From a virus, in IMG/VR virus record IMGVR_UViG_3300009104_000009, positions 1-64,000 of that record: a stretch of 64,000 nucleotides of DNA; one strand, written 5' to 3'. The notes beneath the pieces are model-generated. The model searched no databases, was not told where the DNA came from, and saw nothing but the letters and a program-made list of their open reading frames with translations. Below, piece after piece: positions 11,575 through 61,621 of this stretch; within the stretch, counting starts at the first letter, position 1; every line of letters begins with the position of its first letter. The position numbers and the translations under genes are program-made.

Positions 11575-12228
11575 ATGAAACTCATGTGCGAATTAATGGA
11601 AGATGTGGAAATGCTCATAGAAAAAGATGAGCATGATAAAAAAGAATACTTTATTAAAGGTGTATTTTTACAAGCAGAACAAAAGAATAGAAATGGAAGA
11701 GTCTATCCACTTAGCACAATGCAAAAAGAAGTGGATAGATATTCCAAACAGTATATAGATACTAACAGAGCTTTTGGTGAATTAGGCCATCCGGATGGTC
11801 CTACTATTAACCTCGAAAGAGTTTCTCACATGGTTAAGGAACTCAAACAAGATGGTCCAAACTTTGTTGGAAAAGCAAAAATCATGGAAACTCCTTATGG
11901 TAAAATTGTCAAAAATTTAATTGATGAAGGAGCTAAATTAGGAGTGAGTTCAAGAGGAATGGGTTCACTAAAAACATTGGGTGGATCACAAGTTGTACAA
12001 GATGATTTTCATTTAGCAACAGCCGGAGACATTGTTGCAGATCCCTCCGCCCCTATGGCTTTCGTAGAAGGTATCATGGAAGGTAGAGAATGGATTTGGG
12101 ATAATGGTATTTTAAAAGAAACGGATGTTCAAGAAATTAAAAACCAGATAGTTAAAGAATTTGCTAAGAAAACCAGAGACGAAACTGCTATTGTATCTTC
12201 GTTCGAAACGTTTTTATCAAAGCTTTAA
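11575..12228 (+). CDS. gp21: Prohead protease
   Basis: NRNGRVYP, GELGHP, GVSSRGMGS, DIVADPSAP. Confidence 0.97.
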   Translation: MKLMCELMEDVEMLIEKDEHDKKEYFIKGVFLQAEQKNRNGRVYPLSTMQKEVDRYSKQYIDTNRAFGELGHPDGPTINLERVSHMVKELKQDGPNFVGKAKIMETPYGKIVKNLIDEGAKLGVSSRGMGSLKTLGGSQVVQDDFHLATAGDIVADPSAPMAFVEGIMEGREWIWDNGILKETDVQEIKNQIVKEFAKKTRDETAIVSSFETFLSKL

Positions 12229-57536: not shown

Positions 57537-58373
57537 ATGTCAGAAAATCTTCAAGAAAAACCCGCATTTTGCGATATACCTGGCGGTCCTAGGGATCCAA
57601 ATCTTAAAGCACGATGTGCAAAGCCTGATGCTCCCGCCGCGCCTAAAAAACCTGCTGACATTAGATCTAAAGCTCTAACGGACACGGAAAAGAAAAGAAA
57701 AAGAATACAGAGTTTGGGTCTTACACATGAAAGTGAAAAGAAAGAATCTTTCAAGCAATTCAAAGATAGAATTACATTGGAAGCAAATTTAAATGATTAC
57801 GTTAAAAAATATAAAATGAAAATGGGTGATAAAACTTCTACAGTAGATAAAGATAAATGGGTTGAAGGTATTGGTGGATTAACTAAGAGAGAGCAAGCAA
57901 CCCTAAAACGTGTATTACAAGGACATACCAGAGAAGGTGTAAAGGAAGACGCTGAATTTGCTGATGAGTTAGAATTAGTAGAATTAGCTCCGGTAATAGG
58001 TCTTGCAATAAGGGGTGCCGCGGCTGCTACAAAAACACCGATTAGACGAGCAATTACGAAGCATGTAGTAAAAAAAGCAGTAAACAAAGCAACCTCACCT
58101 CCTCCACCTTCAAATAATGAAGAAGTAGTAAATGAGAGTAAGGAACTTCAAGCTAAGATGGCGTTAGATGATGCAAAGATTAAGTATAAAGTAGAAGATG
58201 GTAAGATATATGTGGATAAAAAAGATCTTATGAAAGCTGAAAAGACCGTAGCAAAATCATTTAGAGTTAAGCCTAGAAACTTAGATGGGAAAAAATATCC
58301 CGCATTATATTATCACGGCGGAAGTTTAGGCATATGGAATAAGAAAAGACCTATAACAGGAATGGGTAGATGA
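57537..58373 (+). CDS. Modular putative internal head protein
   Basis: Internal ESFKQFK..ITLEA, LVE-LAPVIGLA, VNE-SK sites. Confidence 0.45.
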   Translation: MSENLQEKPAFCDIPGGPRDPNLKARCAKPDAPAAPKKPADIRSKALTDTEKKRKRIQSLGLTHESEKKESFKQFKDRITLEANLNDYVKKYKMKMGDKTSTVDKDKWVEGIGGLTKREQATLKRVLQGHTREGVKEDAEFADELELVELAPVIGLAIRGAAAATKTPIRRAITKHVVKKAVNKATSPPPPSNNEEVVNESKELQAKMALDDAKIKYKVEDGKIYVDKKDLMKAEKTVAKSFRVKPRNLDGKKYPALYYHGGSLGIWNKKRPITGMGR

Positions 58374-58867
58374 GAACGTTTATAGAACATGTAATAATTG
58401 AACAAGAATTACGTATGGATAGAGAATTGCAAAATATTCTTATGATTCATGCTAAAGATTATAAATTATTCAGAGAAGGTAAACAGGAACTATCAGAGTT
58501 ACCTCATTTGTATAATGATTTAGTAAAACATTGGCAGACAGATATGCCGTACGGAGTAACAAAAGCCCGTGAGGGTGACCCCTATGAATGGATTGCGAAC
58601 AAATTGAATAGTATTGAAGAACACGGTGAGCCAATGCCAAAGTCATTAGTTCACAATTGAGCTACACACGTTAAACATCCAAGTTTGGGTGATGAAGAAT
58701 TAGAAGTAATAAGTCACAGTTTAGATGAAGATGGTAGAATAGAACAATACAGAGTTAAACCGCCACGCAATGCTCAAATTGGTTCAACAGTAGTTCTGCA
58801 AGCAGAAGAAGTTACTGTAACTAGAGAGCACAGTCACAAACACAAGGTAAAACCCAAAATTAAATAA
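58370..58867 (+). CDS. Putative selenoprotein (165 aa, Sec97), His-rich C-terminal domain, capsid-targeting-like leader
   Basis: Track ORFs 58370-58660 and 58685-58867 are one frame split only by TGA 58658-58660 (HN-U-ATHVKHP); SECIS-like hairpin at 58676-58691. Confidence 0.7.
58676..58691 (+). promoter_or_regulatory. Putative bacterial SECIS element
   Basis: CAUCCA-AGUU-UGGGUG, starting 15 nt after UGA. Confidence 0.6.
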
Positions 58868-58871
58868 TGAA

Positions 58872-59042
58872 ATGAAGACTTTTAAAGAATTTGGAGCATT
58901 CTTCGATGCAACTTTGTCGCAAGATGAAAAAGAGGACATTCCCGTTTTTTCAGATGAGAAGCTTTCAGACACTTCTTACGCAGCCAAAGTTCGACCAGCT
59001 TATAAAGACAAGCAAAAGAAGAAGCAAGTCGATAAATCTTAA
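58872..59042 (+). CDS. Small putative internal protein (56 aa, not in ORF track)
   Basis: Starts MKTFKEF, like T4 internal protein leaders. Confidence 0.55.
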   Translation: MKTFKEFGAFFDATLSQDEKEDIPVFSDEKLSDTSYAAKVRPAYKDKQKKKQVDKS

Positions 59043-59061
59043 TATATATCATAAATTTTGA

Positions 59062-59601
59062 ATGGATTTATTAAAACATACATACAGCAATCTATCCCCT
59101 TATAAAAATCACGAGCAAAAATTATATAAGAAGGGCGACAACTGGTATAAAGAAGTCCGTGAAGGATATTTCGATGATTTTGATATTGAAGCCTTACGTA
59201 CATATATCGAAGTATATGATTTTATAGACCCTCCAATAACATTGGAATTGGAAGACGGTGTTTTTAAATATGAATGTAGAGACTTATCTAAGACACATAA
59301 ACAACTCATAGATATCCCATATAATCGTCAAATCAAAATTCTCGGTAAATTGTTATCAGAGGTAATGCATTCTTTTTTAGAGTTCTCTGAAGCAAGAGGG
59401 AAAGTAGATATTCCAACGCCCAGTAATCCAACAGGAAAAAAAATTTTTTGTCACAGAGACTTAGCTTTTCATAATATCTATGTCGCTGGTGATGATATTA
59501 AACTAATAGATATTGATTCGTTTATGTGGACTAACAGAGGCGATTTCAAATCCTACTATCAATATACTCTTTTAAGATTGGCACAGCATTTTGATCACTA
59601 A
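59062..59601 (+). CDS. Protein kinase/APH-like phosphotransferase
   Basis: CHRDLAFHNI...IKLIDID. Confidence 0.7.
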   Translation: MDLLKHTYSNLSPYKNHEQKLYKKGDNWYKEVREGYFDDFDIEALRTYIEVYDFIDPPITLELEDGVFKYECRDLSKTHKQLIDIPYNRQIKILGKLLSEVMHSFLEFSEARGKVDIPTPSNPTGKKIFCHRDLAFHNIYVAGDDIKLIDIDSFMWTNRGDFKSYYQYTLLRLAQHFDH

Positions 59602-60721
59602 ACCTTGCCTAGCACCTTTTAACTCAATTTTTCATAATTATGATGGTGCTACTTCTGTATGCTGTCACAGACCTGTTGAGATCACAGGTAAGACCCTACA
59701 CGAGAGCATGCACGATGAGAAACTACAAGCAATAAGAAGAAGTTTCGCTAAAGGAGAGACACCTCCAGAGTGTCGGTTATGTCCTAAGCAGATGAGAGAG
59801 TATCATACTGAGAATATCTCTAAGAATATTAAAAGTATTTCATTAGAAAATAAGTTCACTCCAGTAGCTGTAGATTTCTTCTGGTCTAATAAGTGTAATT
59901 TCGCATGCTTAGGGTGTGATAGTTATAAGAGCTCAACAATTGATAAGAATTTTAGAGAGATATATGAGATAATAGATCATCAGAGGCCTGTTCCTAATAT
60001 AGGATATGATAAGCAAGAGAGATTTGATTATATACTAGAAAATTCCGACAGTATTAGAATAATGCATTTATCGAGTTCCGGAGAACCATGGATTGAAGAT
60101 AATATCTATGAGTTATTAGAGCTCTTAGTAGAGCATAAGTTATTTAACATTGAAATAGCGACCCATACTAATGGAAGTATATTGAATTATAAGAATAAGA
60201 GTATGATTGATATATTAGATAATTGGAATGGTAACGCAACTGTTATAATGAGTAATGACGGTACAGGAAAAAGAGGAGAGTATGTCAGATATGGTTATAA
60301 AGATAAAATGTGGTTAAGGACGTATAATAAACTAAAAGAATCTAGCATTAACGTATATGTTCACTACTGTATGAACTTATTCAATATAATGTATCTCAGA
60401 GAAGATGCAGAATGGTTTAAAGAGAATTGTGATGATACTGATATACTCTTAAGATATTGGGAATGGCCTTCTTTATTAACGTCTAAGTTTTTAAAATATT
60501 GGGGTGATTTGTATGACGAATCAATTGATTCATTCAATAGCGCGAAATCCTATTATAAGGATTCGGAGTATGCTGAAGATTACCTAAATACTATAGGGAG
60601 AGGAAATAATTTTAAAGATGATGTTTCGCGATTTAGTTCATTTATACAGAAGATAGATGAAAAAAGAAATACTGATTTTGTAAAAACTTTTCCAAAGTTG
60701 AATGAGATTGTTTTATGGTAG
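59591..60721 (+). CDS. Twitch/SPASM-domain radical SAM protein
   Basis: CLAPF...VCC...ECRLC; NKCNFACLGC; GEP; TNGS. Confidence 0.82.
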   Translation: MITKPCLAPFNSIFHNYDGATSVCCHRPVEITGKTLHESMHDEKLQAIRRSFAKGETPPECRLCPKQMREYHTENISKNIKSISLENKFTPVAVDFFWSNKCNFACLGCDSYKSSTIDKNFREIYEIIDHQRPVPNIGYDKQERFDYILENSDSIRIMHLSSSGEPWIEDNIYELLELLVEHKLFNIEIATHTNGSILNYKNKSMIDILDNWNGNATVIMSNDGTGKRGEYVRYGYKDKMWLRTYNKLKESSINVYVHYCMNLFNIMYLREDAEWFKENCDDTDILLRYWEWPSLLTSKFLKYWGDLYDESIDSFNSAKSYYKDSEYAEDYLNTIGRGNNFKDDVSRFSSFIQKIDEKRNTDFVKTFPKLNEIVLW

Positions 60722-61395
60722 ATAATTTAAAAGAGATTATTCACAAATCTCAAATATGTCAAAGAAATTGGGATTTGAGTGAAGAGATCCCTCAAGAGCA
60801 TGTTGATTTAATTGTAGAAGCAGTTACACAAAGCCCCACCCGTCAAAATATCCCGTTCTATAATGTAGATGTTGTTACAGACAGATCTTTAATCAACAGT
60901 ATCCATAATAATTCTGCTTTTTTTAAAATTAAACCAGGTATGGAGTTATCAGAATATTCTCACGCTGTCGTTAGGGGTTCAGATGTAGAGAAGGATGAAG
61001 ATGGTGTTATCACAAAAACTAATCCTCAAGTGCTAGCTCCCTTATTACTTGTTTTTAGTGCTAATGAAGAGACTTATTACGATAATCAGTTACGACATGG
61101 TAAAGACTCTGCGGAACGTGTTAAGTGGGAAAAAGACGTAAGCCTTTCTATAGGCGTAGCATCTGGATTTGCAAAACTAATATCTACACAATTAGGATAT
61201 GTAAGTGGTTTTTGCGCTTGTTATGGTGAAGAAATAGATAAACTAATAGGATCTTCGGTACGGTTATTTCTTGGGATAGGAAAGCCTGATAAAAACAAGA
61301 AATATACAGAGAGTCATATTGAGGAATTTGAATATCCCAGCTTTAAAGATGTAAAGAGATTAAAACCTGTAAAAGTAGAGTGGCATAATGGCTAA
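60715..61395 (+). CDS. Nitroreductase-family protein
   Basis: CQRNWD, QSPTRQN, PQVLAPLLLVF, LGYVSGFCAC, LGIG. Confidence 0.75.
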   Translation: MVDNLKEIIHKSQICQRNWDLSEEIPQEHVDLIVEAVTQSPTRQNIPFYNVDVVTDRSLINSIHNNSAFFKIKPGMELSEYSHAVVRGSDVEKDEDGVITKTNPQVLAPLLLVFSANEETYYDNQLRHGKDSAERVKWEKDVSLSIGVASGFAKLISTQLGYVSGFCACYGEEIDKLIGSSVRLFLGIGKPDKNKKYTESHIEEFEYPSFKDVKRLKPVKVEWHNG

Positions 61396-61621
61396 ATGGA
61401 AAATCAGATATTGTAGTTCTTGAAACTACAAACCGAACGCAGAAAGTCTTTCTGCTGAAATGAAAAAATTAGGTTATGACGTTGAAATTGAACAAGGAGA
61501 TACTGGACAATTTGAGCTATTTAAATGGTCCACCACATTGTGGATGTCATTTATGAAAGGTGGACATGGAAAGTTCTTTGGAATACAGGAAGTGACGGAG
61601 GCATTAACTAATACGGAGTAA
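61388..61621 (+). CDS. Rdx/SelW-family selenoprotein (77 aa, CxxU; not in ORF track)
   Basis: MAKWKIRYCSS-U(TGA 61421-61423)-NYKPNAESLSAEMKKLGYDVEIEQGDTGQFELF; fills the gap exactly. Confidence 0.88.
61439..61455 (+). promoter_or_regulatory. Putative bacterial SECIS element
   Basis: GCAGAA-AGUCU-UUCUGC, starting 15 nt after UGA. Confidence 0.75.

Follow-up and report, generated by a model that had tools for sequence, protein, structure and literature searches.

The question raised by this locus is why an in-frame UGA stands within a reading frame that stays open on both sides of it. The locus is a gene at positions 58370-58867 of a 64,000-nucleotide (nt) stretch of viral DNA, hereafter the window (positions 1 to 64,000 of IMG/VR record IMGVR_UViG_3300009104_000009); coordinates refer to the window unless another contig is named, and all features located by them lie on the + strand. 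Its ATG, which shares bases with the TGA that ends the preceding gene (ATGA), opens a 96-amino-acid (aa) open reading frame (ORF; 58370-58660) that stops at TGA 58658-58660, after which the frame remains open for 68 further codons to TAA 58865-58867. Read as a whole the gene comprises 165 codons including the one in-frame TGA, and its 165-aa product reproduces exactly the one quoted in a preliminary description made from the same DNA. Our results favor the reading that the gene encodes a selenoprotein of a new phage family, in which UGA would specify selenocysteine (Sec, U) as residue 97 in the motif H-N-U-A-T-H-V-K-H; we put the probability of this at roughly 80%. The core claim of the preliminary description, a new family with a His-flanked Sec, gains support from an invariant TGA, conserved flanking residues, a hairpin that recurs in four sequence versions, and a second recoded gene, of the Rdx family, elsewhere on the contig. 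What is observed is the conservation of the recoding signals and the architecture of the family; that Sec is inserted at the codon is what we infer from them.

The strongest pattern is the conservation of the codon itself. Related loci were collected from a viral collection, one metagenome scan and one genome scan, and of the two peptide patterns that seeded the metagenome scan one (HSL..G.IE) is independent of both the TGA and the hairpin. The aligned column was TGA in 96 of the 96 loci that reach it, and likewise in all 6 loci of another large sub-family, the MSEFDK type. In total, all 102 related DNA loci, which represent at least four sub-families, carry TGA at this position, and never TGG, TGT or TGC. 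They comprise 72 distinct full-length proteins (hereafter U-proteins, whose part downstream of the TGA we call the U-domain) and 40 distinct 51-nt contexts, with protein identity down to about 40%. The residues around the codon, H-[DNQST]-U-A-[TSK], are conserved in all architectures of the family, and changes in the codons that follow, up to a TTG within the hairpin, are mostly synonymous. In the sub-family formed by loci L101 and L102 no in-frame start occurs until about 44 codons past the TGA. Since the flanking residues are conserved and these two loci lack such a start, the gene is best explained as one continuous polypeptide across a site-specifically recoded UGA. That the recoding is site-specific follows from the use of TGA as an ordinary stop elsewhere, as it ends 35 of the 101 long ORFs of the contig and many of the U-protein genes themselves.

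Downstream of the codon lies a hairpin, CAUCCA-AGUU-UGGGUG (58676-58691), with an upper stem of 6 base pairs (bp) and a tetraloop in which a G in second position is followed by U; the 5' arm occupies 58676-58681, the loop 58682-58685 and the 3' arm 58686-58691. The hairpin starts after a 15-nt gap from the UGA, and its loop begins 21 nt past the UGA. Together with a lower stem (58662-58665 with 58700-58703), which forms three of four pairs in the window, it makes up a stem-loop resembling a selenocysteine insertion sequence (SECIS; 58661-58703). Throughout the family, hairpins of 5-7 bp with an N-G-[G/U]-N loop are found 17-21 nt downstream of the UGA. The loops occur in four sequence versions (AGUU, GGUC twice, and GGUU), and the encoded peptides differ while structure and place stay the same. 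The main type is the 16-nt CAYCCA-AGUU-UGGGUG; the second version, CACCCA-GGUC-UGGGUG, stands on a 9-bp lower stem (-17.2 kcal/mol); the third reads GCACC-GGUC-GGUGC in L101 and GCGCC-GGUC-GGUGC in L102; and the fourth is CCUC-GGUUC-GGGG.

Codon usage indicates that the hairpin is maintained as RNA. Across 51 distinct contexts the hairpin codons are fixed, with Pro encoded by CCA in 50 of 50, Ser by AGT in 51 of 51 and Leu by TTG in 51 of 51, whereas adjacent invariant residues use two to four codons and the Leu of the HSL motif at least four. Selection at the RNA level is thus confined to the hairpin, the only place where synonymous sites are frozen. The proposed lower stem, GCNAC with GUNG, was paired in 88% of cells, compared to 25-42% when the partners were slid, and shows modest covariation at one pair of synonymous third bases, belonging to an Ala and a Val codon. 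The 41-nt segment that holds the TGA and the hairpin (58652-58692) is also the most conserved DNA of the family; it is matched by contigs of other members, from independent metagenomes and one metatranscriptome, that do not match in the flanks.

In the model of the bacterial SECIS (bSECIS), the apical loop has 3-9 nt, with a G at its first or second position and a G or U directly after that, the upper stem has 4-16 bp, and the loop lies 16-37 nt from the UGA (PMC13188914). The window hairpin (6-bp stem, AGUU, 21 nt) and the GGUC and GGUU variants (17-21 nt) fall within these ranges of loop, stem and spacing. The corresponding chance rate is low, as only 0.7% of the TGA triplets of the contig have, 16-37 nt downstream, a hairpin with an N-G-[G/U]-N tetraloop and 6 bp or more. 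Compared with shuffled sequences the window hairpin was not significant; the genuine SECIS of Escherichia coli fdhF scored likewise (z = 0.09), and the shuffle z-score test is therefore without power. Rfam returned nothing near the site. A covariance model of the main hairpin type (R1) found only hits in variant loci located exactly at the TGA, all of them weak (E 0.08-1.6), and had no hit at the Rdx gene or at fdhF.

A second recoded gene, 2.7 kb downstream on the same contig, bears on the host. This Rdx/SelW-like gene (61388-61621) has a 77-aa read-through product in which TGA 61421-61423 is the U of C-S-S-U. It matches Pfam PF10262 with 31 bits (cut-off 22.6), the match crosses the TGA, and the TGA falls opposite the second Cys in a SelW-related protein of known structure. 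A 7-bp hairpin, GCAGAAA-GUC-UUUCUGC (61439-61455), lies 15 nt past its UGA. Because a gene of the contig belongs to a known selenoprotein family, the host of this phage very probably decodes Sec. The gene is missing from the relatives G001-G003, and no close relative of it was found in viral contigs.

Three other explanations of the interrupted frame have to be weighed. If the locus were two genes, the upstream ORF would stop at the TGA and the downstream one would begin at TTG 58685 or by termination-reinitiation. Gene callers that use genetic code table 11 do begin the downstream piece at TTG or GTG (P0006, P0203, P0217 and others), and database entries that start with V, L or M just past the column derive from such calls; moreover, the TTG is invariant in the main sub-family. 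As the preliminary description had noted, the TTG is a weak start buried in the hairpin; it is the sole in-frame start past the TGA, spans the loop and the 3' arm, and has no purine-rich Shine-Dalgarno sequence ahead of it. In contrast to what separate genes would predict, the residues between TGA and TTG, A-T-H-[V/I]-x-H-P-S, are conserved at the protein level while their codons change synonymously, H-[D/N] ahead of the TGA is conserved in every architecture, the TTG is absent at that place from L101/L102 and L182, and the upstream "gene" would in most members encode just 22-24 aa. With L101 and L102 lacking an in-frame start as described above, we regard a two-gene arrangement as very improbable. 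Even less credible is a genome-wide reassignment of TGA to Trp (genetic code table 4), a dead gene or a sequencing artefact. The reassignment has in its favor that about 200 database proteins show W at the column, and UGA was at first taken as Trp from these homologs; this was dropped since the DNA of the same genes shows TGA. When translated with table 4, locus L095 reproduces P0013 save for four differences, and all three W of that protein correspond to TGA, one of them being the gene's own stop codon, which is followed by a read-through tail. The database W, which several hundred metagenomic entries of the family show (P0013, P0026, P0125 and P0152-P0368), is an artefact of table-4 gene calls on short contigs, and TGA is the regular stop of so many genes of the contig and of the family that reassignment is contradicted there too. 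Some table-4 entries likewise run beyond the true TGA stop. As regards an artefact or a dead gene, the TGA is present in independent runs and conserved through long divergence. The gene stretch was found in 12 metagenome studies, and independent marine metagenome contigs cover TGA 58658-58660 without any difference there: in run X2 a single 2,705-nt contig spans the whole stretch, and in run X4 a contig covers 58579-58693 with zero differences. Since independent metagenome studies carry the same TGA, it is not an assembly error. Two short contigs from RNA run X20 cover parts of the gene, which is not a demonstration of transcription.

More serious, if still unlikely, is programmed readthrough of the UGA, in which the hairpin or the context would help a near-cognate tRNA (Trp, Cys or Arg) to decode it, so that the long product is made at a constant low proportion to the short one. 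Such a mechanism would make sense of the fused form of the gene, which yields two sensible products, the N-terminal domain also occurring alone in L003-L005; it is in line with the lack of a Cys homolog that would argue for Sec chemistry, and a tRNA-Cys is encoded by the relatives G001 and G002. In the stand-alone members of the family, however, the TGA is codon 22-24, and the short product would be merely a leader peptide. TGG did not occur in any of the 102 loci, though a single transition would have given full expression. The hairpin, moreover, agrees with a SelB-type signal in loop and spacing, even to the loop GGUC, and the contig also carries the Rdx gene with its CxxU motif. Neither the contig nor the near-complete relatives yielded a suppressor tRNA with anticodon UCA. 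We know of no hairpin-stimulated readthrough of this kind in bacteria.

The results in favor of Sec should nevertheless be interpreted with some caution, since several observations weigh against it. Homologs with Cys at the Sec column are the usual criterion for calling a selenoprotein family, and Cys at this column is absent among about 220 database proteins (from protein searches that covered the best 120 matches of each) and the 102 DNA loci; Leu occupies the column in a single database protein, P0253 (protein entry only). The preliminary description had named T4-like homologs with Cys at the UGA position. These were not found, no DNA locus has a Cys or a Trp codon there, and the tabulation of Cys versus TGA at column 97 that it proposed returned TGA for all loci and Cys for none. 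It had also held that homologs lacking Cys would speak against the family; they do lack Cys, and this counts against the claim, yet the loci have TGA throughout and no other residue in its place. The window hairpin is itself weak: the bSECIS model sets a minimum free energy of -7.5 kcal/mol or lower (PMC13188914), and the window value of -6.4 to -7.2 kcal/mol falls just short of that limit, with most hairpins of relatives at -7.5 to -17.2 kcal/mol and the value varying with the length folded. Finally, neither tRNA-Sec nor selB nor selD was found in the phage genomes G000-G003, and a Sec trait of SAR11 was not found in the literature searched. Decoding would consequently rest wholly on a Sec-competent host. 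Sec machinery has been described as universal in the low-GC marine picoplankter Actinomarina (2026 preprint), so that abundant Sec-competent marine hosts do exist. A U-protein gene with TGA is also present on a 15-kb contig (L197, PACV01000050.1) binned in the Flavobacteriaceae metagenome-assembled genome NAT163, in which no SelB passed the cut-off; this contig probably comes from a phage and was binned wrongly, and is hence uninformative on host machinery.

If UGA 58658-58660 is indeed read as Sec, the mechanism is ordinary bacterial Sec insertion, in which the hairpin at 58676-58691 with its weak lower stem would recruit the host's SelB-GTP-Sec-tRNA(Sec) to the codon. Insertion would give the 165-aa protein, in which leader and helical N-domain are followed by a linker and a small beta-barrel U-domain that bears H-N-U-A-T-H, while termination at the UGA would leave the N-domain protein alone (96 aa). 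A selenium-dependent length switch, as suggested in the preliminary description, can on this scheme operate in the fused architecture only, as the stand-alone genes would release just a short peptide.

The predicted structure agrees with this division. In an AlphaFold model made with a 42-row alignment (mean pLDDT 74), residues 17-85 form a helical N-domain, residues 85-94 a disordered linker and residues 96-155 a five-strand barrel that has Sec in strand 1. The U-domain (58661-58864, residues 98-165) is thereby predicted to be a small SH3-like barrel, with HSL...G.IE[E/Q]Y, a C-terminal H-x-H and a basic tail as conserved features, and fold searches returned generic SH3, KOW or PsaE-like barrels only (Z at most 5.2). 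Across sub-families the conserved positions are H(-2), U, A(+1), the His of HSL, G.IEEYYV and the C-terminal H-x-H. The last is clearest in the MKT-leader and MKR[IV]G types and is usually followed by the basic tail, in place of which the MSEFDK type has an acidic one. Pfam and NCBIfam gave no match for the U-protein, and the sole match in PHROGs was a weak one to phrog_22379, of function unknown. The view that this is neither a thioredoxin-fold CxxU protein nor a member of a known selenoprotein family accordingly holds, as the U-protein has no CxxU, no match to Pfam Rdx and a predicted SH3-like barrel. It is reasonable to infer that Sec and the His residues may form a metal-binding or redox site.

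Among uncultured marine phages the U-domain is a mobile module, and the proposed Sec codon is present in every copy; a tblastn search gave no match to the protein in cultured phages. It occurs in five architectures. The commonest are stand-alone genes of 85-92 aa with a leader, the TGA being codon 22-24. In the second the domain is fused behind the helical N-domain, as in the window and in L001, L002, L183 and L193; in the third it follows a different N-domain (L099, L147); the fourth is the MKR[IV]G type (L101, L102); and the fifth is a 208-aa form (L182). Longer fused forms were not found, which is weak evidence. The N-domain of the window (58415-58615, residues 16-82) is helical, carries the motif DMPYGxxKARxGDPYEW and has no Pfam match. 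Besides occurring alone in some phages (L003-L005), it is found inside many large phage proteins. With 201 confirmed stretches in viral contigs (motif DMPYGxxKARDGDPYEW; in the window and in loci L015-L094) it is a very widespread module, either as a protein of about 82-90 aa or within larger ones of 400-1,400 aa for which Pfam has no match. A single metagenome contig of 2.3 kb (L154) holds a paralogous pair of U-protein genes (positions 21-287 and 853-1128 of that contig), each with TGA and hairpin. L101, L102 and L182 have no Shine-Dalgarno sequence, and in the 20 nt upstream of their start codons they carry CATAAATA-like motifs a few bases ahead of the ATG, resembling T4 late promoters; in the main type AAGGGA or GGAG takes the place of these motifs.

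The N-termini of the family point to the phage head. In T4 the 10 N-terminal residues are enough for a protein to be packaged into the head, and gp21 removes them after Glu (PMC9026906). We took as a leader an N-terminus of about 10 aa of the form MKT[F/Y]xEF, with aromatic or hydrophobic residues at positions 4 and 7, and the stand-alone members have it. Most family members begin MKT[F/Y]xE[F/M], with MKTFKEF, MKTYNEF and MKTFQEM among the stand-alone examples; T4 IPI begins MKTFKEF, and IPII and IPIII begin MKTYQEFIAE. The capsid-targeting leader claimed in the preliminary description is thus supported, as many members match MKTFKEF of IPI. The leader of the window gene, MRTFIEHVIIE (58370-58402), resembles the T4 type and is more divergent from it in its MRTFIEH; its I-I-E (residues 9-11) fits the cleavage motif [L/I]-x-E. 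The neighboring 56-aa gene (58872-59042) starts with MKTFKEF, the first seven residues of IPI, and a prohead protease of the T4 gp21 type (Pfam Peptidase_S77; 11575-12228) would process such leaders. From its sequence, an I-E-E in the disordered linker (58613-58621) may be a further prohead-protease site, in line with the cleavage after SIEE that the preliminary description proposed, and fused relatives keep an [I/L]-x-E motif there (ISE, LSE). Since most copies carry a T4-type leader, the stand-alone U-protein is probably a packaged internal head protein, and packaging of the U-domain and its release by the gp21-type protease are plausible. The fuller proposal, that a Sec-containing internal head protein packaged in the virion is ejected with the DNA into the host, so that the fitness of the phage is tied to the Sec machinery and selenium of that host, is tentative and in our judgment has the odds somewhat against it.

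Several known systems can be compared with the family. Genes of the E. coli fdhF type also carry a stem-loop within the ORF past the UGA with G-U in a small apical loop; fdhF, as read from the genome, has GCA-GGUC-UGC 18 nt past its UGA, against 17-21 nt in the phages, and shares the loop GGUC with two of the phage sub-families. The phage family differs from the fdhF type in its carrier, in belonging to no known family, in lacking Cys homologs and in that its decoding machinery would have to come from the host, and its main sub-family differs from fdhF in having an AGUU loop and a short, weak stem. The Rdx family (SelW/SelT/SelH) likewise consists of small selenoproteins abundant in marine metagenomes, and its member on the contig has a similarly placed hairpin; the U-domain, by contrast, has neither CxxU nor a thioredoxin-like fold, and His rather than Cys stands near Sec. 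Phage Q-beta offers a parallel to the fused form only, in that the UGA ends a functional shorter product and a fraction of ribosomes add the C-terminal extension to give A1. Q-beta readthrough, however, uses near-cognate Trp and no SECIS-like hairpin, and most U-family members have no meaningful short product. Like the T4 internal proteins IPI, IPII and IPIII, the U-proteins are small and basic; their genome is T4-like and has a gp21-type protease, and the leader is identical to that of IPI over seven residues in several members and in the gene at 58872. The similarity stops beyond the leader, T4 internal proteins have no Sec, and the T4 leader is absent from the MSEFDK-type and MKR[IV]G-type sub-families. 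Selenoproteins are known from cells and from two poxviruses: a 2021 review of viral recoding lists the poxvirus glutathione peroxidases of molluscum contagiosum and fowlpox (PMC8310308). There, too, host machinery redefines a UGA of a viral gene as Sec, although those are captured cellular genes of eukaryotic viruses with a eukaryote-type SECIS, whereas the phage gene has a bacterial-type SECIS, no cellular homolog and a large family.

No bacteriophage selenoprotein is named in that review or in a 2026 review of the prokaryotic selenoproteome (PMC8310308, PMC13188914), tRNA-Sec genes are mentioned in some huge phages, and our full-text literature searches found no phage selenoprotein. What is new is the phage carrier, a family without a Pfam match and with a new selenoprotein motif and fold, the lack of a Cys counterpart, and a protein that is likely addressed to the virion. 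If the proposal is correct, this would be the first bacteriophage selenoprotein family and the first selenoprotein in a virion, with a Sec/His site without Cys counterpart and with a new combination of motif and fold, H-x-U in an SH3-like barrel. It would further link phage reproduction to the Sec trait of the host and to selenium, provide a host-range marker for uncultured phages, and suggest that T4-type capsid-targeting leaders serve to carry redox or metal chemistry into the cell during infection. A large family of marine metagenomes, with hundreds of protein clusters, appears to be Sec-dependent and is missed by standard methods, as table 11 splits the genes, table 4 misreads them and selenoprotein finders demand a Cys homolog. 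Sec codons can consequently hide as W in metagenomic protein databases.

The phage itself is a marine myovirus of the T4-like kind, as yet uncultured, and the window belongs to a contig of 83.9 kb. This contig has a GC content of about 34% and all its genes on a single strand, among them those for terminase, sheath, portal, scaffold and the major head protein. In its major capsid protein the phage shares about 66% identity with cyanophages, the Methylophilales phage Melnitz and a Stenotrophomonas phage. A cyanophage identity is unlikely, given the absence of psbA from two near-complete relatives; in GC content and size the phage resembles pelagimyophages. In the relative G001 there is a tRNA-like gene (1501-1608 of locus L013; G001:C1:87338-87445) that ARAGORN did not call and that matches the Rfam tRNA model with 41.5 bits; its anticodon appears to be GUU, and its variable region holds an inserted hairpin of 36 nt. 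In the window, the small genes with leaders are followed directly by a gene for a radical SAM protein (59591-60721) with a weak SPASM-like N-terminal match.

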